Counted from the stretch's first letter, positions 1 through 16,356 are shown. The stretch: DNA of 64,000 nucleotides from an uncultured Acidobacteriota bacterium (GCA_963702425.1 CAVPCQ010000036.1:1-64000); one strand, 5' to 3'. Translations and numbers: made by a program. The notes: generated from the letters alone by a model not told the origin.

Positions 1-481
1 ACGCCCGCCTCACCGCCGACGTCGTCGAAGTCTTCCACAACGGCCGCCGGATCACGTCGGCACCGGCGGTTACGGGGCCGCGGCCAGAGCTCGACCTACC
101 CCGGCGCGTGCCCGCGTCCCATCGTGCCCACGCCGAGTGGACGCCCTCGCGGCTGATCCACTGGGCCGAGAAGAGCGGCCCGGCCACGGGGCGCGTGGTC
201 GAGCAGATCCTGCGCTCGAGGCCCCACCCCGAGCAGGGCTATCGGGCCTGCCTGGGCCTGATGCGTCTCGGCAAGAGCACGGCGACGGCCGTCTCGAGGC
301 GGCCTGTGCGCGGGCCGAGCGCCTCGCCGCCGTGAGCTTCAAGACCGTGCACAACATCCTGCAAGCCGGTCTCGACCGTGTCCCGATCGCGGACGAGTCG
401 CTGGCTCCGTCGCCCCCCCCGCAAGGCCATCCCAACATCCGTGGCGCGGACTACTACGCGTCCCAGGAGACCGAATGCTGA
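1..481 (+). pseudogene. istA: IS21 transposase IstA C-terminal part, frameshifted near 275
   Basis: WTPSRLIHWA...HPEQGYRACLGLMRL (ORF 108..335) continues in another frame as RLEAACARA...HPNIRGADYY (ORF 137..481). Both are typical IstA C-terminal motifs. Confidence 0.85.
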
Positions 482-1263
482 CCCAGCCCACGATCGACAA
501 GCTCCAGGCGATGAACCTGCACGGCATGGCCGAAGCCTTCGACCGGCAGCAGCACGACAGCAAGCACCTTGCGCTCGACTTCGAAGAGCGCTTCGGTCTG
601 CTGGTCGACCACGAGTGGACGCAGCGCGAACAGCGCAAGCTGACTCGGCGGCTGAAGCTGGCCCGGCTGCGCTACGACGCCGCACTCGAGGACGTCGAGG
701 TCAAACCCGGGCGCGGCCTGGATCGCCAGGTGCTGCTCGCGCTCGGCGCCTGCACCTGGATCACCGAGCGCCACAACCTGATCATCACCGGCCCGACCGG
801 CTCCGGGAAGTCCTACCTGGCCTGCGCCTTCGGCGAACGCGCCTGCCGCAAGGGCTTCACCGCCCAGTACGTCCGCGCCCCGCGCCTGATCCAGGCCCTG
901 GCCGTGGCCCGCGGCGACGGCTCGTCCGGCCGCCTGCTGGCCCGACTGGCCAAGCTCGACCTGCCGGCGATCGACGAACCCCGGCTGCTCTCGCCGCTCC
1001 AGGACGCCGAGCGCCGCGACCTGCTCGAGGTGATCGAGGACCGCGCCGAGCGTGGCTGGACACTCCTGGCCGGTCAGCTCCCGATCAAAGCCTGGCACGA
1101 GGTGATCGGCGAAGCGATGCTCGCAGACGCCATCCTGGATCGCCTGGTCCACCGCGCGCACAAGATCGATCTCAAAGGGCCCTCGCAACGCGAGCTCCGC
1201 AGTCCGATCCGTGGCGGAGACAAGCCCCGATGTGATCGTCGCGGCGCTCCGAACTCGCGCTGA
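475..1263 (+). CDS. istB: IS21 helper ATPase IstB (degenerate Walker B and C-terminus)
   Basis: Walker A GPTGSGKS, ADAILDRLVH motif, overlaps the istA stop. Confidence 0.9.
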   Translation: MLTQPTIDKLQAMNLHGMAEAFDRQQHDSKHLALDFEERFGLLVDHEWTQREQRKLTRRLKLARLRYDAALEDVEVKPGRGLDRQVLLALGACTWITERHNLIITGPTGSGKSYLACAFGERACRKGFTAQYVRAPRLIQALAVARGDGSSGRLLARLAKLDLPAIDEPRLLSPLQDAERRDLLEVIEDRAERGWTLLAGQLPIKAWHEVIGEAMLADAILDRLVHRAHKIDLKGPSQRELRSPIRGGDKPRCDRRGAPNSR

Positions 1264-1481
1264 CGCGCGATGGCCTACGGACTCTGGGGGGGTCCGTGGA
1301 AAACGCATGACGCCGCGTTTCCCACCGCCCCTTGGACGGCGCGAACCACCGCGCCGTCCACAGGCCCCACAGGCCCTACTGCCACCCCGGCCTTCGACCG
1401 ATCGGGATCCCGCGCTAGAATCTGCCGAGGCTTGACAGGAGGCGAAACCAGAACGAACCGACTGTCGCTTCGCTCCGACGC

Positions 1482-1549
1482 GTGATCACCATCGGCGGAA
1501 TCAGTGATCACGATCCCGGATCGGGTGATCACGATCGCCGGAACCGCCA
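1482..1549 (+). repeat. IS21 terminal repeats (IRR)
   Basis: GTGATCAC at 1482, 1504 and 1525 (21-22 bp period), with terminal CA. Confidence 0.8.
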
Positions 1550-2334
1550 ATGAAGGCCGCCGACGACGGCACCAGCCTTCCCCTGAAGCCCTCCTGGCCC
1601 TCGCCAGCCCGATCTACTACTCCGTCGAACCCCACGGAGCGCGACCGCTACGGCGACCGGATCGAGTTCTGCCTCCATGGGCTCCGGGTCGGCGGAGACG
1701 TCGCCGTCTGGGTGGTCTGCGACAACCCCGAGTTCGAGTCCGGCAGCCGGGTGGAGCGCTTCGTGCCCTGCGGGGCGCTCGGCGCGGCCATCCACCGGCT
1801 CTGGCACGACTACGACGGCGAGAGCATGGGGCTGGCCCCCCCGGTCGGCCGGCCGGACGCGGCGGCCCGGCTTCGGGACCGGCGGACGGAGGTCGCGGCG
1901 CTTCCGCCGCTACGACCAGCCCGACGGAAGGGAGTCGACCCACCCGCGCCCGGCGGAGGTCTTCTCCCGCATCTGCACCACGGCGCGCGACGCCCAGCCG
2001 CCCTGGTGGGGCTGGGACGGCGCGAACCTCTTCCTCTGCCGCGTCGGGATGCAGAACCGGGGCATGGCCAGCCCCGTGCCCCGCTTCGACAAGAGCCTCG
2101 TCGAACTGCTCTCCGCGGTCGGCATCCCGATCGACCGCCTCGACCCCCACCCCGAGGCGCGCGGCGACGAACTCCTCGCCGTCCTCCAGGCCTCCGCGGC
2201 CCTCCGGGAGCGGGACCTCACCCGCAGCGAGATCGAGCCGACGGCGAGCGTCGATCCGGCAGTCGAAGAACGAGATCGCGCGTTTCGAGCAGGAGATCGC
2301 GCGGCTCGAGGAGAAGCTGCGGGGGTTCGAGTAG
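1550..2334 (+). pseudogene. C-terminal remnant of a hypothetical gene, interrupted by the IS and multiply frameshifted
   Basis: Protein-like segments alternate between three frames (IEFCLHGLRVGG..., WWGWDGANLFLCR..., KNEIARFEQEIARLEEKLRGFE*). Confidence 0.5.
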
Positions 2335-2548
2335 GCGGTGCGTGGGCGCCGCACCGCGAACCCCGGCTTTGGCGCGAAGCGTCGCCTCCCTGAACGAGGT
2401 CGGATCCCGGAACGGGGATGATCCGCCCCGCCATTCCGGAAATCGGCGCCTCCAGCACCCATGCTGGCGAACGACCTCACCGCGGGCTTCATGAATCGTG
2501 CGAGACCATTCAAACCGCGCGCCAACCAGGCAGGCCCGCCACAACCGA

Positions 2549-2577
2549 TTGCATCGGTGTACATATGTGCATATATT
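2549..2577 (+). promoter_or_regulatory. sigma70-like promoter with palindromic operator, BrnTA module
   Basis: TTGCAT-N17-TATATT enclosing the imperfect palindrome TGTACATATGTGCA. Confidence 0.55.
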
Positions 2578-2578
2578 C

Positions 2579-2728
2579 TGTTTCGCCGTCCGAGTGGGAC
2601 CCGCGAAGGCGCTACCTAATCGCCGCAAGCACGGCGTGGCCTACACCTGGCGCGGGGAGCGGATCCGCCTCATCTCCGCCCGCCGCGCCACGCCGGCCGA
2701 GCGCCGGCAATACGAGGCCGGTCCATGA
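2579..2728 (+). pseudogene. brnT: BrnT-family toxin with internal deletion
   Basis: EWDP and NRRKHGV joined directly to YTWRGERIRLISARRAT...YE; the middle of the domain is missing. Confidence 0.75.
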
Positions 2729-3000
2729 AGCGCGAATACGACTTCTCGAAGGGCCGCCGCGGCGCAGTCCTCCCCGTGCCGACCGGCAAGACGCGGATCA
2801 CGATCCGCATCGACGACGACGTGCTGGAGTGGTTCCGAGCCCAGGTCGACGCCGCCGGCGGCGGCAGCTACCAGGCGCTGATGAACCAGGCGCTCCGCGA
2901 GTGGATCGCGTCCCGCGAGGAACCGCTGGAGGACCTGCTGCGCCGCGTGATCCGCGAGGAGCTGCCACGGCGTCGCAACGTGATCGGGCGGAAGCGGTAG
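2725..3000 (+). CDS. brnA: BrnA-family antitoxin
   Basis: MKREYDFSKG...KTRITIRIDDDVLEWFR...YQALMNQALR; ATGA overlap with brnT. Confidence 0.85.
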   Translation: MKREYDFSKGRRGAVLPVPTGKTRITIRIDDDVLEWFRAQVDAAGGGSYQALMNQALREWIASREEPLEDLLRRVIREELPRRRNVIGRKR

Positions 3001-3124
3001 CGGGGAGGCGAGGCCGCATCGCGGGCCGCGCGGGTTCTGCGCCGCGATGCACACCGTCCCGGAGATTGCACGGCGGGCGCTTCACCCCCGGTCAGCCTCT
3101 GCTCCACCCGTGAAAGGCCCGGGC

Positions 3125-3343
3125 CTCCACGGGTCGGCCGGCGAGTCTCGCCAAGCCAGGCGAGCATGAGGAGAGCGCCCTTCAGAAGAAGCGCCCTGCG
3201 TGACGAGAAATCGATAGCCGGTACAGCAACCGCTCGGTCGCGTAACGCGTGAGCACGAGGTTCGGGTCCACGCCGATTTCCTCGGCGTGCCGAACGAGGC
3301 GCACCTGGACCGAGTGCGCGAGCCCGGTGGGCGCCCGGCTGAT
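3125..3343 (-). pseudogene. abiEii: AbiEii nucleotidyltransferase toxin, N-terminal fragment only
   Basis: LAHSVQVRL...LTRYATERLLYRLS...LKGALLMLAW...RPT, then truncated. Confidence 0.75.
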
Positions 3344-3946
3344 CCCACCAGCGACTCCAGGTAGGGCCGCATCACGCGCTCCACGCGACAGGTGCGGGCG
3401 TGGCGTGTCAGCGCGGCCATCGTGAAACGGCGGTCGCGCCACGCCTCGCGCAGCGCCTCCAGCGCCACGGCGAGCCCGACCTTGTGCCGGTACTTGAACA
3501 GGTCGGCCAGCGTCTTGGCCACGCTGTAGACGCGCACGGGCTGACCCTCGATGCGGTGGGTCTCGATCCCCTCGGTCAGCGCTCCGCCGGAGAAGCGAAC
3601 CACGCGCAGGGGGGGCTGCCGGAGCAGCGGGGCACGCGCGCGCTCGGTCGATCGCCAGCCAGACCTGGAAGGGGACCTCGGTCCCGATCCCGTGGAAGCT
3701 GAGCGCGGACAGAAGGCAGACGACCCCGCGCGGCGCCGCCCGTGCCGCCAGGACCAGACCGTGGTGTTCCGTGACGGCGAGACCGGCCACCCGGTACAGA
3801 CCGCGTGCCACCCGCTCGAGCCGGCCCTGCCGGACGAGGCGGGTGAGCGCCTGGCTATGGATCCCGGCGCGCGTGACGTCCCCGGCGCGGATCAGGCCGC
3901 GCCGGCGCGCGAGTGCGAGAAGCCGGTCGCTGTCGGAGGCGCTCAT
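3340..3946 (-). pseudogene. abiEi: AbiEi antitoxin (type IV TA), frameshift in a G-run near 3610
   Basis: LTRLVRQGRLERVARGLY, CLLSALSFH, KTLADLFKYRHKVGL, RVMRPYLE motifs across two frames. Confidence 0.8.
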
Positions 3947-3953
3947 GTGTGCA

Positions 3954-3981
3954 AGTGTATGCATTTGTGCATATCTGTCAA
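3954..3981 (-). promoter_or_regulatory. sigma70-like promoter of abiE (probably leaderless)
   Basis: TTGACA-N16-TACACT, 7 nt upstream of the ATG at 3946, with TGCA repeats. Confidence 0.55.
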
Positions 3982-4135
3982 CCTTTTTCCCACAGACGCG
4001 ACTCCCGAGGCACCGCTCGGGCGCGGTCCATCGCCTGTGAGTGTCACATTCCGAGCCCGCCAAGGCGACTCAGAGCGTTGCCGGAGCGGGATCGTGCTCG
4101 CGGCCTTGGCTGTGCTTGGCTGTGCTTGGCGATCC

Positions 4136-4332
4136 GCGATGAGTCCCGCCCTCACGTCCACGTGCGGCAAGGCTCCGGCAGGGTCAAGATCTGGCCTGAT
4201 CCTGCCATCGAAGTTGTCTCACACTCCCGCATGGACGCACCGAGCCGCTCCAGGGCACTCCGGCTCGTGCGCCAGAACAAGGACCTCCCCCGTGCCGCGT
4301 GGGAAGCACATCGCCGCTCCGAAGATCGCTGA
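4136..4332 (+). pseudogene. DUF4160-family (HicA-like) toxin, 5' truncated
   Basis: DESRPHVHVR...KIWPDP...AAWEAH; no proper N-terminus. Confidence 0.65.
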
Positions 4333-4556
4333 GCTGACCGAGGACGGCTTCTGGCTCGTCCTCGACGAGCGCCGGATCTTCGTCGACTTCCGCGAGTTCC
4401 CGTGGTTCCGCGACCGCTCGCGCGAGGAGCTGCAGAACGTCGAACACCCGTTCCCCGACGAGCTCCGCTGGCCGGAGCTGGACGTCGACCTGACGGTCGA
4501 CTCACTGCTGCACCCGGAGCGGTACCCGCTGCGGTTCGGGGGGCTCTGGGCCCTCC
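4318..4556 (+). pseudogene. DUF2442-family antitoxin, no clear start or stop
   Basis: GFWLVLDERRIFVDFREFPWFR...LRWPELDVDLTVDSLLHPERYPL. Confidence 0.7.
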
Positions 4557-4871
4557 ATGGCGCCCCGAGCGAAGCACCCCCCTATCCATCCCGGCGAGGT
4601 CCTCTCCGCGGGCTTCCTCGTCCCGCTGAAGCTCTCGCAGTACCGCCTCGCCCGGAGCATCAGCGTGCCGCCCCGGCGCATCAACGAGATCGTCCACGGC
4701 GAGCGCGCGATCTCCGCGGACACGGCCCTTCGCTTCGCGCGGTTCTTCGGCACGTCCGACCGCTTCTGGCTGAATCTGCAGACGCGCTACGACCTCGAGG
4801 TCGAGCGCGACCGGCTCGGTCCGCGCCTGGACGACGAAGTCACGCCCCTGGCCGAGGTGCGGGCGAGGTGA
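4557..4871 (+). CDS. higA: HigA-family antitoxin (no cognate HigB adjacent)
   Basis: PIHPGEVL...SQYRLARSISVPPRRINEIVHGERAISADTALRFARFFGTS.RFWLNLQ.RYDL. Confidence 0.9.
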   Translation: MAPRAKHPPIHPGEVLSAGFLVPLKLSQYRLARSISVPPRRINEIVHGERAISADTALRFARFFGTSDRFWLNLQTRYDLEVERDRLGPRLDDEVTPLAEVRAR

Positions 4872-4876
4872 CGGGC
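4672..4876 (+). repeat. Direct repeat A copy 1 (higA 3' end)
   Basis: About 90% identical to 5506..5709 by eye. Confidence 0.9.
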
Positions 4877-4990
4877 CCTAAGCCGCCCGGATGCGCCCCC
4901 CGCTCGCCGAATCCCGCGCGCGGGACGATGTCGCGTCGAGTCCCCTCACCACCTCCCCCTCGCCCGCTACCGTGCTCGGCGGAGGTGCGC

Positions 4991-5227
4991 GTGCCCACCG
5001 TGCTCCGAGCTTCCGGTTACCGGGTGTTCTTCACCGCTCACGATCGCGGCGAGCCTCCGCATGTCCACGTCGTTCGCGCCGATGGTCACGCCAAGGTGTG
5101 GCTCGACCCCTTCGAGCTCGCCTGGGCTCGCGGCCTCCGATCCGATCAGGTGACGGAACTGCTCGAACTGGTCGATAATTGGCGAGCCCTGCTGCTGGAG
5201 GCTTGGCATGACTACTTCGCGCACTGA
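4991..5227 (+). CDS. DUF4160-family toxin
   Basis: GGAGG RBS, then VPTVLRASGYRVFF...EPPHVHV...AKVWL...LLEAWHDYF. Confidence 0.8.
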   Translation: MPTVLRASGYRVFFTAHDRGEPPHVHVVRADGHAKVWLDPFELAWARGLRSDQVTELLELVDNWRALLLEAWHDYFAH

Positions 5228-5503
5228 CCTGGCCCCCGTGGCCGTCAACGTGCTCTGCACCGAAGACACCCTCGAGATCACGCTGTCGGACGGCCGCCGG
5301 CTCTCCGTGCCGCTCTGGTGGTTCCCGCGGCTGCACCGCGCGACGCCGGATCAGCGCATCCGCTGGGAGTTGATCGGGGGCGGCGAGGGGATCCATGGCC
5401 CGACGTGGACGAGGATCTCGAGGTGGAGCACCTGTTCTCGTTCGCGCTTCGCCCGCTCCCGGCGAGTCAGGCCGATTGGAAGTCGCCGTTGGCGGGGTCG
5501 TAG
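5208..5503 (+). pseudogene. DUF2442-family antitoxin, frameshift near 5397
   Basis: LSDGRRLSVPLWWFPRL..AT..QR..WELIGGGEGIH continues in another frame as WPDVDEDL. Confidence 0.75.
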
Positions 5504-5505
5504 GG

Positions 5506-5709
5506 CCCGGCGCATCAACGAGATCGCCCACGGCGAGCAGGCCATTACCGCGGACACGGCCCTTCGCTTTGCGCGGTCTTCGGCACCTCCGACCGCTTCT
5601 GGCTGAACCTGCAGGCCCGCTGCGACCTCGAGGTCGAGCGCGACCGGCTCGGTCCGCGCCTGGACGACGAAGTCACTCCCCTGGCCGAGGTGCAGGCCGG
5701 GTGACGGGC
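5506..5709 (+). repeat. Direct repeat A copy 2 (higA 3' fragment, pseudogene)
   Basis: RRINEIAHGEQAITADTALRFAR... with a 1-bp deletion and no 5' part. Confidence 0.9.
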
Positions 5710-5890
5710 GCCGTCTACCGCCACGAGCGCCCTCGCACGTTTCCCGCGGACGGGACAGTTCCTCACGAAGCAGGTATCGCAGCGCCTGTTCGCTACGCAT
5801 CCTGACGGCACCGCTCGATGGCGGGGCAAGCCAGGCGGCACGCCCTGACATCGTCATGGACCGGGGTGCGCCAATGGCGTATATACTGCT

Positions 5891-6208
5891 TTGAGGTTCA
5901 TCGAGACCGTCGGCTTCAGCCGCCGACTGCTCGAGTTGCTGGACGACGACGGCTACCGCGCGATGCAGGCGGCACTCCTGGCGAACCCTGGTCGCGGGGC
6001 CGTCATCGCAGGCAGTGGCGGCTTGCGGAAGTTGCGTTGGGGACTCCCGGGACGCGGGAAGAGAGGCGCGCTCCGCGTCATCTACTGCTGGGACGCCCCG
6101 GCGGAGACGATTTTCATGCTGCTGCTCTACACGAAGCAGGACCAGGAGGCTCCAACCCGAGATGAGTTGCGGCTCTTGGCCCGCCTCATGAGTGGGGACG
6201 AAGCGTGA
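5891..6208 (+). CDS. RelE/HigB-2-like toxin
   Basis: FIET..F...NP..G.VI.GSGGLRKLRW...GKRGALRVIY...LLYTK; preceded by palindrome GCGCCAATGGCGT and TATACT. Confidence 0.85.
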   Translation: MRFIETVGFSRRLLELLDDDGYRAMQAALLANPGRGAVIAGSGGLRKLRWGLPGRGKRGALRVIYCWDAPAETIFMLLLYTKQDQEAPTRDELRLLARLMSGDEA

Positions 6209-6495
6209 AGAAGGAACTCTTCGCAGAACTGGTCGAGAGCGTCAAGGAGATGCGCGCCATCATGCGCGGCCAGCGCAAGCCCGCCCGCGTGACGGTGGTC
6301 GAGCCGGTCCACGTGCAGGCGATCCGCAAGCGGCTGGGCATGACGCAGCCGGAGTTCGCGCGGCTGATCGGCGTCAGCGTGGCCACGCTTCGCAACTGGG
6401 AGCAGGGGCGCCGCCAGCCACACGGCCCGGCCCGCGCCCTGCTCAAGGTCGTCGCGAAGAACCCCAAGGCCGTGCTGGACGCGCAGCGCGGCTGA
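6205..6495 (+). CDS. XRE/NadS-like HTH antitoxin
   Basis: LFAELVESVKE...IRKRLGMTQPEFARLIGVSVATLRNWEQGRRQP.GPARALL; GTGA overlap with the toxin. Confidence 0.85.
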   Translation: MKKELFAELVESVKEMRAIMRGQRKPARVTVVEPVHVQAIRKRLGMTQPEFARLIGVSVATLRNWEQGRRQPHGPARALLKVVAKNPKAVLDAQRG

Positions 6496-6603
6496 CGGCT
6501 GGGCCGAGGCGCTCGAGCACCCCGCCGGCCGCCCGGCCGCCCGGCCCGCCCCGCGCGGGACGCTCCGTCCCACGCGAGGCGATCCGGCCCGGCGTTCCGA
6601 GGG

Positions 6604-8859
6604 CTACGGCGTGGTCGCCGAAGCGACGTTGCTGGACTTCGAGTCGCCGCCCGCGTTGCGGGCCTTGACGCGGAAACGGTACGTGGTGCGCGACGCGGTC
6701 GTGCCGTCGCGGTAGGTGGTCGTGTTCGCGGCAGTCGTGGCGATCGGCGCGAAGTTGGTGCACCGCTTGCCCCTGCAGCGCTCGACGACGAACGCCGTCT
6801 CGTTGCTGGCGTTGTCCTTCCAGCGCAGGTCGACGTAGGTCTTGCGGCTCGCGCCGCTGCCGGTGGCACCGGCCTTCGCGGTGAGGCTGGAGGGGGCGGC
6901 GGGGGGTGACGGCGGCGGCGCGTCGCTCACCTCGAGCGAGGTCTTCGCCAGGTTGGAGTTGATCATCCCGTCCCAGGCGGCGTAGGTGAAGCTGTCGGCG
7001 CCCTTGTAGCCGGCGTCGGCGAAGTAGGTCGCCACGGTCCCCGACAGCCCGACCGTACCGTGCTGCGGCTGGGAGACGATCCGGTAGGTCAGCGCGTTGC
7101 CGTCCGCGTCGGTGGCGGTGAGGGTGATCGGGGTCGCGCTGTCCGGCTTGGCGTTCCAGTTCAGATCCGACGCGACGGGCGCACGGTTCGGATTCGAGTG
7201 CTCGCTGTCCGGGCCATTGTGGCAGGCGTAGCAGGAGATCTGGAACCCCTGCCAGAAGTTCTTCGTGCCGAACTCGGTCCTGAGCGTCCGCGGCCCCAGC
7301 GCGTAGCTGAGAACCGTCCCGCGCGAGTCGCGGCCGTGGCACGCCTGGCAGGCGGCCGAGCCGCCGTCCTCGGCGGCGTCGCCGTGCTCTTCGACCCAAT
7401 CCTGGCCGACCGGGTGCATCCCGTGCGGGCCGCCCGACGAGCCGCGCGGGGTATCCGCGTGGCACGTGCTGCAGTCGGAGATCGTCCCGGCGTGCCCCTG
7501 CAGCTGCTGGCTCTGGACGTTGTCGTTGGCCTCGAAGCTGGCGTACTCGGCGTGCGTCGCGCCGTGGCACGACTCGCAGGCCAGGCCGCCGTGACCGGAG
7601 GAGAAGCGGTAGAGCGAGTATCCCGCGCCCGGCGTGTTCGGGTTCGTGGCGAAGGTCGCGTCGACCGCCTGCCGCCGGCTGCCGTTGGCCTCCAGCGCGT
7701 TGCTGTACCGGATCTGGCCGTTGTTGCGGAGCGCGGTCCCGGTGTGGCAGTTCTGGCAGCTCGGCTGGTCGAGCCAGCCGTCGCGGGAGGCGCTCCCCAC
7801 CGCGCTCATCGAGCCGTGGCACCCCTGGCATTGCATCGCCATCGTGCCGTCGCCGGCGACCGCCTTGCCCATCGCGCCGCGCAGGCAGCGCGTCGTCGAG
7901 CCCGGGTGGCAGCGGTAGCAGGCCGAGCGGTTCGTGCTGTCGTCGAGCGCCATCTGGTTGGTGGGGTCGTTCACGCTGGCGTGCATCGAGTGCACCGCCT
8001 GCGTGAGGGGCGGGATCCCGGTCATGCCGGTGCCCGGCAGCGCGTTGCTGGCGTGGCACTTCGCGCAGAGGATCGGCGTGCCGCGGTCGTGCGCCGTGGC
8101 GTAGAGCCCGGCGGGGTCGTATCCGGCGTCGGCGAGCGCCTGCTGGAAGCGCGGGCTTCCGCCCTCGTAGTCGTCGTGGAGCAGCAGGACGTTGTAGCGG
8201 AAATCGAGCTGCGGGTCGGCGTGGTTGATCCAGCCGCCGCTCGGCCGCGCGTCGGGACCCGACCCGGAGGCGTGGCAGGCGCGGCAGTCCATCTCGTCGG
8301 AGACCGGCAGCACGATGTCGGTCTGCGCCAGGAACCTCCCCGACCGGTCGCGCGCGACGAGGCGCATCATCGGGTAGGTGTCCTTGGCCCCCTTGTCGTT
8401 GACCGGCGTGATCGGGATGCCGTCGGCGATCCACCAGCGCATGCCGGGGTCGTAGCTCATGTTCTGCGGGACGTTGCCCGGCCCGGGCATGCCGTACCCG
8501 GCCAGCCCCATGTCGGGGGCCGGCGTCGCGCCGAAGAGCGGCCCGACGAACTGCCAGAAGTTCGTCTTCCCGACCGAGCTGCTGTTGACCGACCCCTTGG
8601 GATCGGCCACCGCCTGGTAGGTGACGACGTACGACGCCCCGTTCGTGACGAAGTGGCCGTTGGCGTCGATGAGTTGCGCGTGGATGACGTTGTAGGGCGG
8701 AAGGATCGTGAAGACCTGGAAGTCGGCATCCATGCAGTGCATTCCGAGGTTGTTCCAGCCGACCAGCGTGTAGCCGGTGGCCGGGTCTGCCGCGTACGCC
8801 GCAGTCGTGGCGAGCACCAGCACGACCACTGCGAGGGCGAGGAGCGCGCACCGCTTCAT
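6604..8859 (-). CDS. Secreted multiheme cytochrome c (9 CxxCH) with C-terminal Ig/cadherin-like and FN3 domains
   Basis: Signal peptide MKRCALLALAVVV; CRACH, CAKCH, CYRCH, CQGCH, CQNCH, CESCH, CSTCH, CQACH, CYACH; DADG..LTY..P.HG..G.DSFTY repeat; FN3 LRWKDN..Y.FRVKA.N. Confidence 0.9.
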   Translation of the reverse strand: MKRCALLALAVVVLVLATTAAYAADPATGYTLVGWNNLGMHCMDADFQVFTILPPYNVIHAQLIDANGHFVTNGASYVVTYQAVADPKGSVNSSSVGKTNFWQFVGPLFGATPAPDMGLAGYGMPGPGNVPQNMSYDPGMRWWIADGIPITPVNDKGAKDTYPMMRLVARDRSGRFLAQTDIVLPVSDEMDCRACHASGSGPDARPSGGWINHADPQLDFRYNVLLLHDDYEGGSPRFQQALADAGYDPAGLYATAHDRGTPILCAKCHASNALPGTGMTGIPPLTQAVHSMHASVNDPTNQMALDDSTNRSACYRCHPGSTTRCLRGAMGKAVAGDGTMAMQCQGCHGSMSAVGSASRDGWLDQPSCQNCHTGTALRNNGQIRYSNALEANGSRRQAVDATFATNPNTPGAGYSLYRFSSGHGGLACESCHGATHAEYASFEANDNVQSQQLQGHAGTISDCSTCHADTPRGSSGGPHGMHPVGQDWVEEHGDAAEDGGSAACQACHGRDSRGTVLSYALGPRTLRTEFGTKNFWQGFQISCYACHNGPDSEHSNPNRAPVASDLNWNAKPDSATPITLTATDADGNALTYRIVSQPQHGTVGLSGTVATYFADAGYKGADSFTYAAWDGMINSNLAKTSLEVSDAPPPSPPAAPSSLTAKAGATGSGASRKTYVDLRWKDNASNETAFVVERCRGKRCTNFAPIATTAANTTTYRDGTTASRTTYRFRVKARNAGGDSKSSNVASATTP

Positions 8860-9057
8860 GATTCCCTCTCTCTCTCTTGGGAGGCGCTCCGGGGAGGAGC
8901 GCCTCCAGTTGCTCGCGGCAAGCCGGGTGGTGGCCGCGGTATCGAGAACGAAGCGGGCACGGGGCGGTGGGTGCCACGGGCTGCTTCGCGGGGATCGGGT
9001 GGAGCCCTTCAAAGCGGTGGCGCGCGTTACCTCTCATGATTCCTTGTTGTGTTGTTA

Positions 9058-9073
9058 TGCAAGGGAGCTGCCA
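9058..9073 (-). promoter_or_regulatory. sigma54 (-24/-12) promoter upstream of the multiheme cytochrome
   Basis: Minus strand TGGCAG-CTCCC-TTGCA within an AT-richer intergenic region. Confidence 0.65.
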
Positions 9074-9412
9074 CTCGAAGGAGAACCGTGGCGGACACTT
9101 CCGAACGATTCTTTTCCTGAAGTGGTCGAAAGTTGAAACAGTGACTAACCAGGCCGTGCAGACTGCAACACCTGCGGCACCCGGTAAGGGCGGGGGGTGC
9201 TCCTGCCGGGCTGCTTCTCTGGGCCTTGCGGTCCTTCGCAGCCGGGGGGGACCGATCACCGGTCTCCCGCGCCTTTCCGGGCCCGCAGGCGTGAAGACGG
9301 TCCGCTCCACGCGCGCGCCGCTCGCGCCACCCGGCGGTCCCACATCCCGGAGCGGGGATGGTCCTTGCCGGAGTCGACTGCGCCGCGGCGCTCCGCCGCT
9401 CATGCTCGGCGC

Positions 9413-9649
9413 ATGCCGACCGTTCTCCGCTGCGGTCCCTACCGCATGTACTTCTGGAGCAACGAGGGCCACGAACCTGCGCACGTCCACGTTGAGCGCG
9501 GCGAGGCGAGGGCCAAGTTCTGGCTGGGGCCACCGGGACTCGCCCAGAGCAGGGGATTCTCCGGTCCGGAACTCACGCGTATCATGCGGCTGATCGCCGG
9601 GAATGCGGCGGATCTCCAGCGAGCCTGGGATGAGCATTTCGGAGCCTGA
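9413..9649 (+). CDS. DUF4160-family toxin
   Basis: MPTVLRCGPYRMYFWSNEGHEPAHVHVERG...AKFWL...AWDEHFG. Confidence 0.85.
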   Translation: MPTVLRCGPYRMYFWSNEGHEPAHVHVERGEARAKFWLGPPGLAQSRGFSGPELTRIMRLIAGNAADLQRAWDEHFGA

Positions 9650-9926
9650 GCTGTCGCAGCGAGCCCGCACCGTCCGCGTTTCGGACGAGGCTCTGTCCGT
9701 CGAGCTGATCGACGGGCGTTGGATTTCCGTGCCGCTCGCCTGGTTCCCGCGCCTCGTTCACGGCTCCGCCGCGGAGCGGGCGAACTGGCGCCTCGCCGCG
9801 GACGGATGCGGGGTCCACTGGCCCGATCTCGACGAGGACATCAGCGTCGCGGGCCTGCTCGCCGGGCGACGCTCCGCCGAGACGGCGGAGTCGATCGCCC
9901 GGTGGCTCGAGACGCGGCGGAGCTAG
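9630..9926 (+). CDS. DUF2442-family antitoxin
   Basis: VEL.DGR.ISVPLAWFPRL...ER.NW...G.GVHWPDLDEDISVAGLL.G. Confidence 0.85.
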   Translation: MSISEPELSQRARTVRVSDEALSVELIDGRWISVPLAWFPRLVHGSAAERANWRLAADGCGVHWPDLDEDISVAGLLAGRRSAETAESIARWLETRRS

Positions 9927-9930
9927 GCGG

Positions 9931-10171
9931 TCAGCGCGGCCCCTCCGCCGGGCAGCGGTGGTTGTACGCCGCCGCCTGGTAGAACCAGGCCCCGGTCGGC
10001 GAGACGTCCCCCGTCGTGTCGATCCACTGCTTGTTGGGGGTCGCCTCGTCCATGTCGATCACGTCGCTGGCGACGAGAGGCCAGTCGTCCGGCGGGAGCG
10101 CAGGGCTGGACGACCGGTACACGTCGTAGCCGGTCACCTGGTCGGGCTGGTTGGGGTCCATGAAGTCGAGG
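9931..10171 (-). repeat. Direct repeat B copy 2: orphan 3' end of the FG-GAP surface protein gene
   Basis: About 12 mismatches in 241 bp versus 11060..11300; frame and stop codon preserved. Confidence 0.95.
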
Positions 10172-10282
10172 GGGAATCCCGCGGGCGCAACGCGTGGCCC
10201 GACTCGACCGCCCTCGTTCGGCCCCGTTTCCATACCGTGCAATCCGGGCTGCGCGGCGCAGCGCATCCGCCCACGCCTGGAG

Positions 10283-10311
10283 TTGTTCCTATGCCGGATC
10301 CGACATACACT
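10283..10311 (+). promoter_or_regulatory. Promoter/operator of the RelE-HTH module
   Basis: TTGTTC-N17-TACACT overlapping the near-perfect palindrome TATGCCGGATCCGACATA. Confidence 0.5.
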
Positions 10312-10653
10312 GCCCCTGATGATCTCGGCAACGAACGGCCACTCGTCTGGTTGGCCGGAGCGATCCGAACGCCCCCCTTCTCCCGGGCAGGCCGCCTGCT
10401 GGCCGGCTACCTGCTCCGGCGACTGCAGCGAGGAGACCGCTTGGCAATGCCCTTCTCGCGGCCGATGCCCGTGCTCGGCCGACGCTGCCACGAACTGCGG
10501 GTCAGGGACGGCGACCGGAACTGGCGGATCTGCTAACGGACGGACCCGGACGCGGTCGTGATCCTGGCGGTGTTCCCTGAGTCGTCGCGCGAGACCCCGC
10601 CGGACGTCATCGAGGCCTGCCACCGGCGCCTGCGGGAGTACGACGATGCGTGA
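10291..10653 (+). pseudogene. RelE/ParE (Gp49-like) toxin with in-frame TAA at 10534
   Basis: PLVWL...TPPFS...GYLLRRLQRG..L.MP.SRPMP..G.RCHELRV.D...WRIC*RTD.DAVVILAVF. Confidence 0.8.
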
Positions 10654-10960
10654 GCGGAAAGCGGCACGTCTCCGTGAACTCGGCTGGCGGGCGGGAAGCG
10701 CAGCGGACTTCCTCGGTCTGTCAGCGGAGGAAGCCGCCTATGTGGAAGTGAAGCTGAGCCTTGCAGAAGGCCTTCGTCGCCGGCGCGCCGAGCACGAGCT
10801 GACTCAGACCGCGCTGGCCGAGGCCGTCGGCTCCAGCCAGTCACGCGTCGCCAAGATGGAACGGGCCGATGCGACGGTCTCCCTGGACCTGCTGATCCGC
10901 GCCCTGCTGGCCCTCGGGGCGACGCGCCGGGAGCTGGCGCGGATGATCGAGGGGAAGTAG
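10646..10960 (+). CDS. XRE-family HTH antitoxin
   Basis: GW..GSAADFLGLS.EE...LTQ..LA...GSSQSRVAKME..D.TVSLDLLIRALL.LG. Confidence 0.85.
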   Translation: MRERKAARLRELGWRAGSAADFLGLSAEEAAYVEVKLSLAEGLRRRRAEHELTQTALAEAVGSSQSRVAKMERADATVSLDLLIRALLALGATRRELARMIEGK

Positions 10961-11059
10961 CGCCGACCGAGGGGGCCGCCTGTCCGGGTGTCACTGCGCG
11001 CGGCGCGCCCCGGCGACTCGCCCCGGACGCGCCGCGCCACCCCGTCGCGAGCCAGGCCC

Positions 11060-11300
11060 TCAGCGCGGCCCCTCCGCCGGGCAGCGGTGGTTGTACGCCG
11101 CCACCTGGTAGAACCAGGCCCCGGTCGGCGAGACATCCCCCGTCGTGTCGATCCACTGCTTGTTGGGGGTCGCCTCGTCCATGTCGATCACGTCGCTGGC
11201 GACGAGGGGCCAGTCGCCCGGCGGGAGCGCGGGGCTGGACGACCGATACACGTTGTAACCGGTCACCTGGCCCGGCTGGTTGGGATCCATGAAGTGGAGG
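11060..11300 (-). repeat. Direct repeat B copy 1 (3' end of the FG-GAP gene)
   Basis: Matches 9931..10171. Confidence 0.95.
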
Positions 11301-14300
11301 ATCGGGTAGGCGTTGCCGTCGGCGGTCAGCGTGACCGCGGAGATGTAGACCGTCTCGTCCGGCGCGACGCAGGGGACGCTGGGGACCATCCCGGCATCCC
11401 ACATCGTCGCGTCCTGCGCACCCGAGAGCGCGAACGCGGCGGTGTCCCCGGAGAGCGGGTCGGCGTCGCTGTCCTTGCCGTCGTCGGGCCCCTGGTCGCG
11501 GGGGGCGATCACGTAGCCCGGGGGCGGGATGAAGCGCAGCCGATAGAGTGGGCCGCCGCTCACGTTCTGGAAGCTGTACTGGCCGCTGGCGTTGGTGAAG
11601 GTCACGTCCAGGAAGGCGCCGCTGGCGCCGTCGAAGAGGTAGACCAGCGCCGAGACGACGCCGGGCTCGCCGGCGTCCTGCAGGCCGTCCCCGTCGAGGT
11701 CCTGCCAGACCCGGTTGCCGAGCGCCGCGCGGACGGCGGTCGTCGTCTCCTGGGCAGCGTTGTCCGAGGGGTCCGGGTCGATGAAGCCGGTCCGGAGCAG
11801 GGCCGCGTTGGTGAAGGTCCCGGGCGCGTTCGGGGTGACGACGATCTGCACGGTCGCGCTGCCGCCCTGCGGCAGGACGCCGAGGTTGCAGGTCACCACA
11901 CCCGCGGCCTGCGAGCAGTTGCCCTGGCTGGGTGTCGCCGAGACGAACGTGACGCCGCCGGGGAGCGTGTCGTCCACCGAAACGCTCGCCTGGGCGGGTC
12001 CGGCGTTCCCGATCGACAGGGTGTAGGTGATGCCGGCGGTGTCGAAGTTGATCACGTATGGGTCGGGGGTATCGACCATCGAGAGCGACAGCGACGCCGA
12101 GCGCGGCAGCGCCAGGTCCGCCTCCTGCGGGCCGTTCCACGAGCCGGAGATCCAGCGGCTGCGCGGTTGGAACGGCGTCGTCGCCGGGTCGTAGAGCAGG
12201 CGCATCCGCCAGTGGTAGGCCTGGCTCTCGACGAGGCCGCTCACCAGTTCGTCGAAGGAGGCCGGAGTAGCGCCAACCGGTTCCCAAGTCGAACTCCCGC
12301 CTAGTTCGAGCCCGTCGAAGAGCGTGCCGGCCGGCTCGACCTCCCACTGGAGGCGCACGCGGCCCGCTCCGAACGGCGTCCGGCCGAGCATCGCCAGCCG
12401 GAAGCCGGTCTTGCTGTCGGACCATCCGAGCGGGGCGATCGGCGCGCTGTCGTCGGCGCGGCGCTGCTGCGGGGTGAGCGAGGGGCCGGCGCTGCCGTTG
12501 CCGTAGTAGAGGAAGGCGCGGCCGGCGTCTCCTTGATAGTAGTTGTAGTAGGGCGACCCAACAATGAGATCAGCGTATCCGTCGGCATTGACGTCCCCGG
12601 CGCCTGCCACGGAGTAGCCGTACTGCGCGCTGCACTGTTCGGGGCGACCGACCCATGATGCGGATGTGGGCAGCCCGGAAGCGGATCCAAGGTAGACGAA
12701 TGCGGCCCCGTCGTCGCCGCAGTACTGGTCATACTGGTTGGCACCGATGATGACGTCGCCGTATCCGTCGCCATTCACGTCCCCAGCACTCGCAACGGAG
12801 GTTCCAAACCACGCGTAGCACTGCCCCGGCGAAGTGCTCCAGACGCTAGCGGTGCTGGTGCCGGTCGGGCCTCCCAGGTAGAGATCTGCCCGCCCCGAAT
12901 AGCTGCAGGTGTAGTGAGCATCGGGCGACCCGATGATAACGTCGCTGAAGCTATCCCCGTTGACATCTCCCGCCGATGCCACTGATTGACCGAAGTGCTG
13001 AGAGGATTGTGTGCCGTCTACGATCCAGTTAGCGCTGCTACTGAGCCCGGCTGCTGAGCCGAGGAAGACATACGCCCGTCCCTGATCGCTGGTGAAGTAG
13101 TCGAAGTAGGGAGCGCCGATGAGAACATCGCTGTACCCGTCCGCGTTGACATCGCCGGCCGAAGCAACGGACCATCCGAAGTACGAGTAGTCCTGATTGC
13201 TGTCCGCCCACCACGACGGAGTTGCGGACGGTCCCGCTGCGGAACCGTAATAGACGAACGCCCGGCCCTCGCGGTAGTGAGAATCGTAGTAGTGGCGGGC
13301 GCCGACGATGATGTCCGCGTACCCGTCGCCATTCACATCCCCCGCTGACGCGACGGAGTACCCGAAGAAGGCAGCGGGTTGATTCGGTTCCGCAGTCCAG
13401 GTGGGAACTGCGCTGAGACCCTCTGGCGAGCCAAGGAACACGAACGCTCGGCCTTCTTCGGACTCGTTATTGTCGCATTCATAGGCGCCGACGATCACAT
13501 CGCCATATCCATCGCCGTTGACGTCGCCTGCGCCCGCCACGGAGTAGCCGAAGTAGGCTGAGTTCTGGTTCCCTTCTGCGAACCACGCGGGAGACGTTGC
13601 CAACCCCATCTGCGACCCGAGGTACGCGTACACGATCCCCTCGTCGTAATTTCCATTGTCGAACAGGTGTACGCGGAGACGAGCACATCCCCATACCCGT
13701 CCCCATTCACATCCCCCGCCCCGGCAACGGACCACCCCAGCAGCATCGACCCCTGCGACCCATCCACCGTCCACCCCGCCGTCGTCGCCGGCCCGGCCGA
13801 CGACCCGAGGTACACGTACGCCCGTCCCTCATCCGTCTCCGGATCGTCGTAGCGCGGTGCCCCGACCACGAGGTCGGCGAACCCGTCGCCGTTCACATCT
13901 CCGGCGGTCGCGACCGCCGCCCCGTACTCCGCCGCGGCCTGGTTGCTCTCGGCCCGCCAGTCGGCGTTGACCGGCGTCCCGCTCGGCCGCGCCCCGCCGC
14001 GGTTCAGTCCCTGCGCCGACCCGAACCACGCGAACGCCGCCCCTTCGGCCGCCTCACCGTTCCCGAACGTCGAAGCGCCCACGACCACGTCAGCGTACCC
14101 GTCGCCGTTCACGTCCCCCGCCGTCGCCGCCGCGATCCCGAACGCCGCCGAGGCCTGGTCCGACTCGGCCCTCCAGTCGGCGTTGGCCGGCGTCCCCGAC
14201 GGCCGCGCGCCGCCCGCGTCGAGCCCGCTCGCTCCGCCGTGGAAGACGAAGATCGACCCCTCGTCGACGTGGTCGCGGTCGTAGAGGTCCGCACCGACGA

Positions 14301-15978
14301 TCACGTCGGCGTAGCCGTCGCCGTTGACGTCGCCGGCCGTCGACACGGCCGACCCGAACCCGGCCACCGACTGCTCGCCGCGCGCCGTCCAGTCGGCGCT
14401 CGCACCCGGCCCCGAGGCCGAGCCGTGGAAGACGAACACCTTCCCTTCCGCCACCTCCGTCTCGGTGTACTCGCTCGCGCCGACGATCACGTCGGCGTAG
14501 CCGTCCGCGTTGACGTCGCCCGCGGTCGCCACCGCGCCGCCGAACGCCGCCGAGTCCTGGTTCCCCTGCGCGGTCCAGGCCGGCGTCGCAGACAGTCCGC
14601 TCGCCGAGCCGAGGAACACCGACGCCGACCCCTCGTCGACCTCGCCGTCGCCGAAACGCGGCGCGCCGACGATCAGGTCGGAGTAACCGTCGCCGTTCGC
14701 GTCTCCGGCCGTCGCCACCGCCGCCCCGAACCACGCGCTCGACTGTGCCCCCAGCGCGGTCCAGTCGGCATTGACCGGCGTCCCCGAGGGTCGCGTCCCG
14801 GATCGGTCGAGCCCCGTCGCCGACCCGAGGAAGACGAACGCCGCCCCCTGATCGGTCTTTCCGGCGTCGAACTGCCGCGCGCCGACGACCAGGTCGGAGT
14901 AACCGTCACCGTTCACATCGCCGGCCGTCGCCACCGCGACGCCGAAGAGCGCCACCGCCTGGTCGGCCTCGGCCGTCCACGCCGCGCTCGCCGACAGCCC
15001 GCCGGCCGAGCCGTGGTGGACGAAGACCCGCCCCTCGTCGGTCTGCCCGCCGTCGAACCGGTGCGCGGCGACGGCCACGTCCGAGAACCCGTCCCCGTTG
15101 ACGTCGCCGGCGGTGGCGACCGCCCAGCCCAGGTTGGCCAGCACCTGGTTCCCCTCCGCGGTCCACGAGGGGCTGGTGAGCAGCGGATCGATCGTCAGCG
15201 GGTAGACCGCATCGCTGTCCTCCACCACGATCGCCAGCCCCGGACCGGAGTCCGCAGGATGCCCTTCCGCCCGCCCCTCCAGCCGCGCCGCGATCTCCCG
15301 CCCCGTCGCGTCCGTCACGCGCAGCCCGCCGTAGCGCAGCACCCGCACCCCGCCGCGTACGAAATCGACCACCGACCCGTCCGCCGCGAACGACGGCACC
15401 GTGTCGCCGCGCAGGGCCAGCGTCAGCACCAGCGAACCCTGCTCACCCGCGGCCGGCCGCGCCGCGATCGTGAACCCCTGCTCCAGCCCCTTCGGGTCGT
15501 TGACGTACCACTCGACGACCGCTCCGCGGCGGTACTCCACCCGGTTCCCGTCGACCACGAGCTGCGCCGGCGCGGCCGCAACAACGTCGGCCCCCGCGCG
15601 CCCCAGGCCGACGAGCGCGATCCCCCACTCCCACCCCGACTCGTCCTCGCTGCGCGGCACCACCCTCACCCCCGAGGCCGCGAAGGAGGAGCGGAAGCCG
15701 TTCGCACGGTTGGGCGCCTGGTAGGCAGCCTCCCCGCTCGTCTCCGACGATGTCCCTTCGTCCCGCGTGACCGCGTACTCCGACGCCGCGATCGAGCGCG
15801 AGACCTCGCTCCACCATTCCGGGCTGTCCGCCGCGGCCGGCGGCAGCGGCGAGACCTCAGGTGGGACGGGTTCCGCGGCCGTGGCCGCTGCCACCGCACC
15901 GCTCGCCGCACCGACCAGGACAAGAACCAACGCCAGGACGCCCCACAGACCCCGACCGCGAAGCAGAGAACCCCTCAT
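11060..15978 (-). CDS. Large secreted integrin-alpha-like protein: 14 FG-GAP repeats, DUF11-like and SdrD-B-like domains, C-terminal domain; apparent frameshift near 13670
   Basis: Signal peptide; 14 x FG..VA.AGDVNGDG..D..VGA across ORFs 13495..16152 and 11060..13774; ITYTL.I.NAGP...DPDPSDN; LGNRVW.D.DGDGLQDAGEPG. Confidence 0.85.
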
Positions 15979-16356
15979 GTCTTGACCCCCAGTGGACTTT
16001 GCGCGTGCGTCACCGAACCCAAGCTGCAATCGTCGCGCTGCGACCGGCGCAACCGGCCCGCTTCCGGGAGTGCGGTCCTCCATGACGAGTCCGCGTCGAC
16101 GCGGACGCACCCCACCGATCCGTCGCGCAGCGCAGCACGAGACTAGCGGCACAGCTCGGACATTACGGAACGACCGAGGCGTCTAATTCGATTCGTCCGG
16201 CGTCCGCCACCGTGTGCGCCGCGGTGACCGATGCGTACAACGCCTCCCCTGCGGGCGCCCGCTTTCGCTTGCAACAGTCCACCGATCGGCGTACTAACTC
16301 GTCGGGAACGTCCGGTCCCGATCCCGCAGCGCCCTCATGCGGTAGAAAGGAGAACC

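Follow-up and report, generated by a model that had tools for sequence, protein, structure and literature searches.

How chromosomal toxin-antitoxin (TA) operons move without an attached mobile element is poorly understood. Integrative elements duplicate gene 3' ends, chromosomal integrons hold gene cassettes carrying TA pairs, and a circle bearing a chromosomal fragment can integrate by Campbell-type single crossover, a reversible laboratory or plasmid phenomenon that requires only RecA and gives the order target-insert-target with hybrid target copies. For restriction-modification (R-M) units, insertion with long target duplication was reportedly described by Nobusato et al. in 2000 (Gene 259:99). 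Here, we analyzed two small inserts, each bracketed by direct repeats of a neighboring gene's 3' end (sites 1 and 2), within a 64,000-nucleotide stretch from an uncultured Acidobacteriota bacterium (GCA_963702425.1, CAVPCQ010000036.1:1-64000; hereafter, the window). Site 2 has all structural features of the R-M insertions except their cargo and extends that class to TA cargo.

According to Furuta, Abe, and Kobayashi (2010; PMC2853133), R-M units were inserted with target duplications that were long and variable (46 to ∼423 bp in their Tables 2 and 3), with an empty site in a relative and without mobility genes. The mechanism was not established, DNA breakage by the restriction enzyme was suggested, and the units were proposed to follow a "virus-like life cycle," in which they insert, are amplified through the repeats, and are released; the word "toxin" is absent from that paper. 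In the corresponding passages of the review by Mruk and Kobayashi (PMC3874152), insertion of this kind is stated for R-M systems and not for TA systems, and where Van Melderen and Saavedra De Bast (2009; PMC2654758) take up the matter, Nobusato et al. are cited only for R-M decay. Full-text literature searches returned no report of classical TA operons inserted with long target duplication, which is not proof of absence. A preliminary description of the window had proposed recombinase-free accretion of TA cassettes; as a category this route is not new, since insertion with long target duplication is known for R-M units.

Filled and empty alleles at site 2

The window lies on contig C36 of a metagenome bin (assembly G000; 5.1 Mb in 42 contigs, 91% complete, 5.85% contamination). 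Gene content was assigned with Pfam for 30 open reading frames (ORFs) within positions 1 to 16.2 kb, and the sequence was compared with 41 genomes (its own and 40 relatives); four congeners (G001 to G004) were in the collection searched. For metagenome comparison, contigs (not raw reads) of four runs from sediment and freshwater samples (X1 to X4) were matched at ≥90%, each run covering at most 43% of the sampled words. To count the occurrences of the repeats, each of the four copies served as a BLAST query against the entire 5.1-Mb assembly.

The two direct repeats are genuine and beyond chance. In the following, A denotes the repeat copy at the intact gene end, and A' denotes the other copy (for coordinates, see Table 1). 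At site 2, the copies span 252 bp and are 94.0% identical (237/252) without gaps. At site 1, the copies span 205 bp with 91.7% identity and one 1-nt deletion in the downstream copy; a repeat search over positions 1 to 14000 returned this repeat as two pieces (4672-4743 versus 5506-5577, 90%; 4744-4876 versus 5577-5709, 93%). As originally described, the repeats bracket a DUF4160/DUF2442 pair at site 1 and a TA pair at site 2, and they end just past a stop codon, 5 nt beyond that of higA and 11 nt beyond that of the FG-GAP gene. The site 2 unit opens with G-AGC-TAG, the end of DUF2442 #2 including its stop codon (TAG is changed to CAG in the right-hand copy). Comprising the DUF2442 #2 end, a spacer, and the FG-GAP end, the unit that was duplicated is thus the local junction between these convergent genes.

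Each repeat is two-copy in the assembly, apart from a duplicate of the site 1 block on contig C26, and the next best matches reach 67 to 72% (C9 and C10). Thus, neither fragment is closer to another genomic paralog, a possibility that the preliminary description had asked to be checked. No sequence is shared between the site 1 and site 2 repeats. The 64-kb window holds six families of direct repeats of ≥80 nt, the other four being internal repeats of the FG-GAP gene and two unrelated pairs; inverted repeats of ≥80 nt are absent. In or beside the inserts, the 30 scanned ORFs include no integrase or transposase, in agreement with the preliminary description; the sole exception in the scanned range is an IS21-family IstB gene 3.4 kb from site 1. 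The GC content of the inserts (0.69 to 0.71) is similar to that of the genome.

The congener assembly G004 (5 contigs, 96% complete) is syntenic with the window at ∼94% identity. Window positions 9497-10171 align to 9707-10381 of its locus L021, and positions 11051-12724 align to L021 10132-11803, with one 250-bp stretch of G004 matching both site 2 copies. Base-by-base alignment revealed that the single G004 copy is joined on its left to the DUF2442 #2 stop codon, like A', and on its right to the FG-GAP body, like A. The cassette sequence between the copies had no match anywhere in the G004 assembly. The empty allele for which the preliminary description had proposed a search is therefore present at site 2, as one 252-bp copy without cassette. 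The filled arrangement was recovered beyond the bin as well: in runs X3 and X4, contigs extend across the junction of the cassette with the FG-GAP gene (10419-11105 and 10337-11188, respectively), and an X1 contig (10149-10310, 1 mismatch) runs from A'-specific bases into the cassette, with only 23 nt left of the joint, below the 31-nt minimum applied in the matching. A joint from 10171 to 11301, which would mark the empty allele, was not among the joints listed for the X1 to X4 contigs at the coverage given above. In G001, a homolog of the cassette is found at another locus, between an HicB gene and a convergent GH39-like gene; its antitoxin is 86% identical at the amino acid level, and its toxin gene is internally deleted.

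The two copies have diverged unevenly. A' matches the G004 copy at 233/252 positions and A matches it at 239/252. Eleven changes are unique to A' (including a site where all three sequences differ), 9 of them in the cassette-adjacent 94 bp (10078-10171) and 2 in the remaining 158 bp, a clustering with a Fisher P value of 0.0028 and a permutation value over all split points of 0.02, which is a modest statistic and was partly chosen after seeing the data. At 8 of the 9 informative sites in the cassette-proximal part, A has the same base as G004, and a 68-bp block (10010-10077) is identical between A and A'. Such unevenness fits a crossover or conversion inside the repeat. Because gain in G000 and loss in G004 are mirror-image reactions, the mosaic pattern does not give direction. 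At site 1, positions 4790-4843 are identical in both copies of G000, while G001 has 9 changes of its own there (11 in its unbroken run 4808-4855). A three-way comparison with the single higA of G001 assigned 10 unique substitutions and one deletion to the downstream copy versus 6 to higA.

The multi-allelic array at site 1 and its surroundings

At least five alleles with recurring breakpoints at gene edges exist at site 1. In G004 and G002, DUF2442 #0 is joined to DUF2442 #1 by a short junction with overlapping stop and start codons (GTGATGG), and neither higA nor DUF4160 #1 lies between. In addition, G002 carries the first 150 nt of higA joined to the end of DUF2442 #1 at the microhomology CGGCGAG, and it has the first DUF pair at the opposite side of the AbiEi gene as well; in G004 an 8-bp repeat, ATCCGCCG, flanks DUF2442 #1. 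In G001, higA is followed by 49 bp and then by the last 72 nt of DUF4160 #1 with DUF2442 #1, with no higA fragment after them. Segments of 1.17 to 1.2 kb fill the A' slot in G001 and G002 and have no Pfam match. Metagenome contigs contributed the joints 4543 to 5238 (X3 and X4), 4543 to 5721 (X3), 4543 to 5397 (X4), and 4867 to 5150 (X4), and one X4 contig joins 5505 to 5724 with 148 other letters between. Across genomes and metagenome contigs, the breaks recur at the same few positions (4543, 4876, 5238, 5505, and 5721), all of them gene edges. At the DNA level, the DUF pairs on either side of higA do not resemble one another, in contrast to the higA ends with their 92% identity. Judged from its geometry, site 1 is likely the same kind of event as site 2. 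The original wording, that such bracketing arose "twice independently," is not secured, as site 1 lacks an empty allele and lies in this array.

The motif GGGCCC is present at both ends of insert 1 (4873-4878 and 5503-5508); with the recurring breaks, it may mark a place prone to illegitimate joining. Positions 3971-6080, including both site 1 repeats, recur at the end of contig C26 (C26:1-2232, locus L057) with 99.8% identity, the differences being 2 substitutions and one C that restores the DUF2442 #1 frame. This block adjoins a ∼120-bp sequence resembling the end of an IS21-family element instead of the AbiEi gene, pointing to either a very recent segmental duplication next to an insertion sequence (IS) end or a strain variant in the bin.

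Table 1. Features around sites 1 and 2, with positions counted from the first nucleotide of the window
Feature	Position	Strand	Evidence or remark
IstB helper ATPase, IS21-family element	475..1263	+	Pfam IstB_IS21, E=2.6e-60; context only
AbiEi-type antitoxin/regulator gene	3185..4063	-	Pfam AbiEi_4, E=3.2e-14; left edge of TA island
DUF4160 #0	4102..4329	+	Pfam DUF4160, 25.8 bits; N-terminally truncated (profile positions 12-65 only)
DUF2442 #0	4280..4558	+	Pfam DUF2442, E=4.6e-13
higA-type HTH antitoxin gene	4557..4871	+	Pfam HTH_3, E=2.4e-8; site 1 target; 92% amino acid identity to G001 ortholog
Repeat A, site 1	4672..4876		Last 200 nt of higA and 5 nt past its stop
Insert 1 (629 bp)	4877..5505		Spacer and DUF4160/DUF2442 pair
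DUF4160 #1	4991..5227	+	Pfam DUF4160, E=4.1e-14, 53.0 bits; complete
DUF2442 #1	5208..5503	+	Pfam DUF2442, 43.6 bits
Repeat A', site 1	5506..5709		Decaying copy of higA 3' end
RelE/Gp49-like toxin gene	5891..6208	+	Pfam scores under cut-off for RelE (22.1 bits) and Gp49 (17.3 bits); next array module
MqsA/HTH-type antitoxin gene	6205..6495	+	HTH_3, E=5.7e-10; next array module
Multihaem/Big_9 gene	6607..9012	-	Pfam
DUF4160 #2	9410..9649	+	Pfam, E=2.7e-16; left flank of site 2
DUF2442 #2	9603..9926	+	Pfam, E=4e-19; left flank of site 2, convergent with FG-GAP gene
Repeat A', site 2	9920..10171		7 nt of DUF2442 #2 end, 4-nt spacer, and copy of last 241 nt of FG-GAP gene (9931-10171, minus strand)
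Insert 2 (877 bp)	10172..11048		TA operon and its upstream region; absent from G004
Gp49/HigB-like toxin gene	10291..10653	+	Pfam Gp49, 22.6 bits (cut-off 23.9), read with X at stop
HTH (Xre-type) antitoxin gene	10646..10960	+	Pfam HTH_3, E=7.8e-11
Repeat A, site 2	11049..11300		Functional FG-GAP 3' end and 11 nt beyond its stop
FG-GAP/SdrD_B/DUF11 surface-protein gene	11060..13774	-	Pfam FG-GAP, E=2.3e-47; site 2 target

The region around both sites is a TA island in which many genes are damaged, a TA graveyard rather than an active system. Cassette 1 consists of adjacent, overlapping DUF4160 and DUF2442 genes, both above the Pfam cut-offs, which we take to be a TA pair. On C36, its DUF2442 gene is frameshifted by one missing C near position 5395, and the gene is intact in the C26 copy and in contigs of X3 and X4. 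Cassette 2 is a putative type II HigB/HigA-like pair, in which the antitoxin gene overlaps the toxin gene end by 8 nt; the toxin gene, a sub-threshold Pfam match, has an in-frame TAA (10534-10536) and is likely a pseudogene. DUF2442 #0 has lost its stop codon in this genome (TGG versus TGA in G001), and higA has no cognate higB upstream. All three distinct DUF4160 loci of the genome lie inside the island. The gene list of the preliminary description correctly placed TA-type pairs between the repeats at both sites but missed two further DUF4160/DUF2442 pairs (4102-4558 and 9410-9926) and the broken state of several genes.

The FG-GAP gene goes on upstream in another frame (13498-16152), with two overlapping frames on the minus strand (11063-13829 and 13498-16183). 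Its 186-nt repeat period becomes 188 nt near 13485-13673, indicating a frameshift or misassembly, and the G004 ortholog is split into more frames, which may be an assembly error. At the opposite edge, the IS21-family element runs off the contig start and ends near 1549, and positions 1-1549 are 95% identical to copies on C40, C17, and C23. The ∼1.6 kb from the end of this element to the AbiEi gene (1550-3180) contain long ORFs on both strands without Pfam match, and this segment yielded no AbiEii toxin gene that could partner AbiEi.

Throughout the genome, 76 nearby direct-repeat pairs were detected (same strand, ≥80 bp, ≥80% identical, within 6 kb). Most of the 18 comparable pairs that were annotated (210 ORFs) represent paralogous or tandem genes (Peptidase_S8, TSP_3, FG-GAP, and RHS), IS copies, or a duplication within a gene. 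Two of the 16 toxin loci (3 DUF4160, 1 Gp49, 10 PIN, 1 ParE, and the RelE-like gene of the window) are bracketed by unique long repeats, both in this window, and self-comparison of 37 other loci of relatives revealed no further repeat-bracketed case. A VapBC locus on C30 and a PIN gene on C19 were considered and rejected as target duplications, as their repeats belong to multi-copy families of at least 7 and at least 25 copies, respectively. The VapBC pair (C30:59228-62922, L035; G004 L044) has a frameshifted PIN gene and is bracketed by direct repeats of 258 bp. These begin immediately behind a lipoate-ligase-like gene and correspond to the 5' portion of a multi-copy element of 1.46 kb, with copies on C25, C29, and C37. 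Precisely at the edge of the upstream repeat, the identity to G004 changes from 92.5% to 98.8%, which suggests a recent exchange of "VapBC plus element" between the G000 and G004 lineages. A dispersed repeat family of ∼254 bp (C19:3-256 and at least 25 other places, on C17, C23, C32, C34, and C18; 75 to 90% identity), which may be an IS end, a MITE, or the 5' part of a gene, is behind several of the nearby repeat pairs, and a palindromic, REP-like element of ∼75 bp (L035:425-510) matches both strands and occurs at hundreds of sites in G000 to G004.

Origin of the inserts

On balance, we lean toward the view that site 2 is a TA cassette inserted with long target duplication, the duplication being a local product of two illegitimate joints that enclosed a captured TA fragment, and that its repeats later took part in homologous exchange. 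The target would have been the tight junction of DUF2442 #2, the 4-nt spacer, and the FG-GAP gene. Two chromosome copies (a sister or incoming homologous DNA) may have been broken ∼250 bp apart and connected by two illegitimate joints, with a TA-bearing fragment captured between them and no element-encoded recombinase taking part in the joining. The left copy would then have stayed with DUF2442 #2 as a dead gene fragment, and the right copy would keep the FG-GAP gene whole. The sequences show the repeats and their gene content, an empty allele at site 2, uneven divergence, and decay; how the joints were made, that the change was an insertion rather than a deletion, and any transfer are inferred. 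Because the site 2 unit contains the junction of both convergent genes, it would have begun as a duplication of this very target, which calls for two illegitimate joints and not for a foreign circle of "gene end plus TA." Once present, repeats of this length could serve as substrates for ordinary RecA recombination, by which the cassette might pop out and restore a G004-type empty allele, one repeat copy might be converted from the other, or "cassette plus repeat" might be carried to other strains that have an empty allele. At least one exchange of this type may have left its trace in the patchy identity between the copies.

Several observations weigh against this scenario, beside the modest strength of the mosaic statistic. 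The change could also have been a deletion, in which the repeats recombined with each other and the cassette disappeared from G004; no outgroup with the site 2 locus was found, G001 to G003 having only matches of ≤70% to the FG-GAP end and no close ortholog. The cassette homolog of G001 has no flanking repeat. By codon position (in the order 3:2:1), the A'-unique changes are distributed 5:3:2 and the G004-specific changes 3:2:2, which does not separate decay from a foreign functional allele. An empty allele of site 1 (the higA stop followed by 5710 onward) was not found in G001 to G004 or in runs X1 to X4. Finally, a Ku end-joining gene was not found in the 91% complete genome. ComEC is present, as in 10 of 14 control genomes, and both results carry little weight.

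A rather unlikely, though possible, alternative is that a small circle, or a linear piece with repeat ends, brought "gene end plus TA pair" from another strain and that a RecA crossover at the resident gene end produced two hybrid copies, the reverse reaction excising the cassette. This was the idea of the preliminary description, and for spread and excision it is plausible: 9 of the 11 A'-specific changes fall in the 94 bp by the cassette (with the corrected P of 0.02), the left part of A' is resident-like, its flank being continuous with that of G004, and the right part of A' is divergent, A resembles G004 in its right part, and the identical 68-bp block lies where the crossover would be expected. 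The match between insert and genome GC content would fit a donor among close relatives, and the identity step at the VapBC repeat edge points in the same direction. As the ultimate origin, this idea did not hold up, since the repeat arm includes the local DUF2442 end and an earlier illegitimate event would still be needed. Moreover, the cassette-proximal part of A should look donor-like too, but it differs from A' at only 5 of ∼90 positions and is not clearly foreign. A donor allele with the A' variants was found neither in the 41 genomes nor in the metagenome and genome collections, where the antitoxin of cassette 2 had no close alleles (6 metagenome loci with ≤62% and 2 genome loci with ≤54% amino acid identity). 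We consider it quite improbable that no insertion took place and that the short copies are remnants of full paralogs (another higA and another FG-GAP gene), or what deletions left of a tandemly duplicated "gene end plus cassette" in a recombining TA array. The many alleles and recurrent breakpoints at site 1, the microhomology deletions evident in G002 and around DUF2442 #1 in G004, and the presence in G001 of higA and the DUF pair without A' would all accord with such a history. It does not predict that the G004 allele of site 2 is exactly one-copy with both flanks continuous, and the DUF pairs flanking higA lack the similarity that the higA ends have; no other close paralog of either repeat exists in the genome.

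That a trans-acting recombinase of integron-like or integrase-like type integrated the cassettes site-specifically, with the gene 3' end as attachment site, appears very improbable to us. In its favor, the small genes of the site 1 array all point in the same direction, and cassette boundaries recur at gene edges. Against it stand the lack of an integrase among the ORFs scanned and of inverted repeats of ≥80 nt in the window, the absence of sequence common to the two repeats, and the repeats themselves, which at 205 to 252 bp and 6 to 8% divergence are unlike att cores; the G000 and G001 copies of cassette 2 have unrelated flanks and hence no att-like site. That the structures are an assembly artefact of a metagenome-assembled genome is hardly credible, even with 42 contigs, 5.85% contamination, and a site 1 block that occurs twice (on C36 and at the end of C26). 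Copies diverged by 6 to 8% are not confusable, which argues against assembly collapse; synteny with G004 and G001 supports the order on C36, the site 1 structure was assembled twice, and contigs of other runs bridge the junction between cassette and A.

Beyond the local origin of site 2, a broader and doubtful proposition is that long target duplications turn TA cassettes into RecA-dependent mobile units, in which "cassette plus one repeat" would leave as circular or linear DNA and invade empty alleles by way of the repeat as homology arm, each passage reshuffling the last ∼80 codons of the target gene. If true, this would amount to a general recombinase-free spread of chromosomal TA loci together with a diversification of surface-protein C termini.

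Comparison with known systems

No new molecular machine is revealed by the window, whose cassettes are mostly dead. What it provides is one clean case, with filled and empty alleles and a 252-bp duplication, and one probable case of the movement of TA operons without an attached element. The site 1 array resembles integron TA cassettes in its small, same-direction TA modules, gene-edge boundaries, and module-by-module gain and loss; unlike these, it lacks attC-like sites, the scanned ORFs include no integron integrase, and the flanks of the modules show no conservation. With integrase-mediated islands, whose att sites arise by duplication of a tRNA or protein gene's 3' end, both sites share a direct repeat of a gene 3' end that brackets the insert and leaves the target gene intact. 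They differ in that no integrase is present, the repeats are much longer and diverged, no core is common to the two sites, and the inserts measure only 0.6 to 0.9 kb. The target-insert-target geometry is that of Campbell-type integration as well, but the homology arm holds a local gene junction, implying an earlier local duplication, and no natural circle, donor, or junction was seen.

The closest likeness is to the R-M insertions with long target duplication. As in that class, both inserts are short (<20 kb) and carry a complete addiction-type unit, 877 bp with toxin (carrying an in-frame stop codon) and antitoxin at site 2 and 629 bp with DUF4160 and DUF2442 at site 1. Their flanking direct repeats exceed 30 bp and are not high-copy at either site, and no mobility gene lies in or beside them. 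Some of the R-M repeats overlap gene 3' ends, as do those described here. At site 2, the small self-contained unit is placed between long direct repeats that align to one copy at the empty site of a relative; at site 1, such a site was not found among the congeners and runs searched, and copies diverged by 6 to 8% and mosaic set both sites apart from the R-M cases. In contrast to R-M units, the cargo consists of type II TA-like operons, at site 2 a putative classical type II TA operon, so that a double-strand break by a restriction enzyme is not available. Taken together, these comparisons suggest that TA operons use the same long-target-duplication route as R-M genes, which would point to a host-driven mechanism rather than one dependent on a restriction-enzyme DNA cut, and the mosaic repeats suggest that the duplications may then serve homologous recombination, be it excision, conversion, or transfer.

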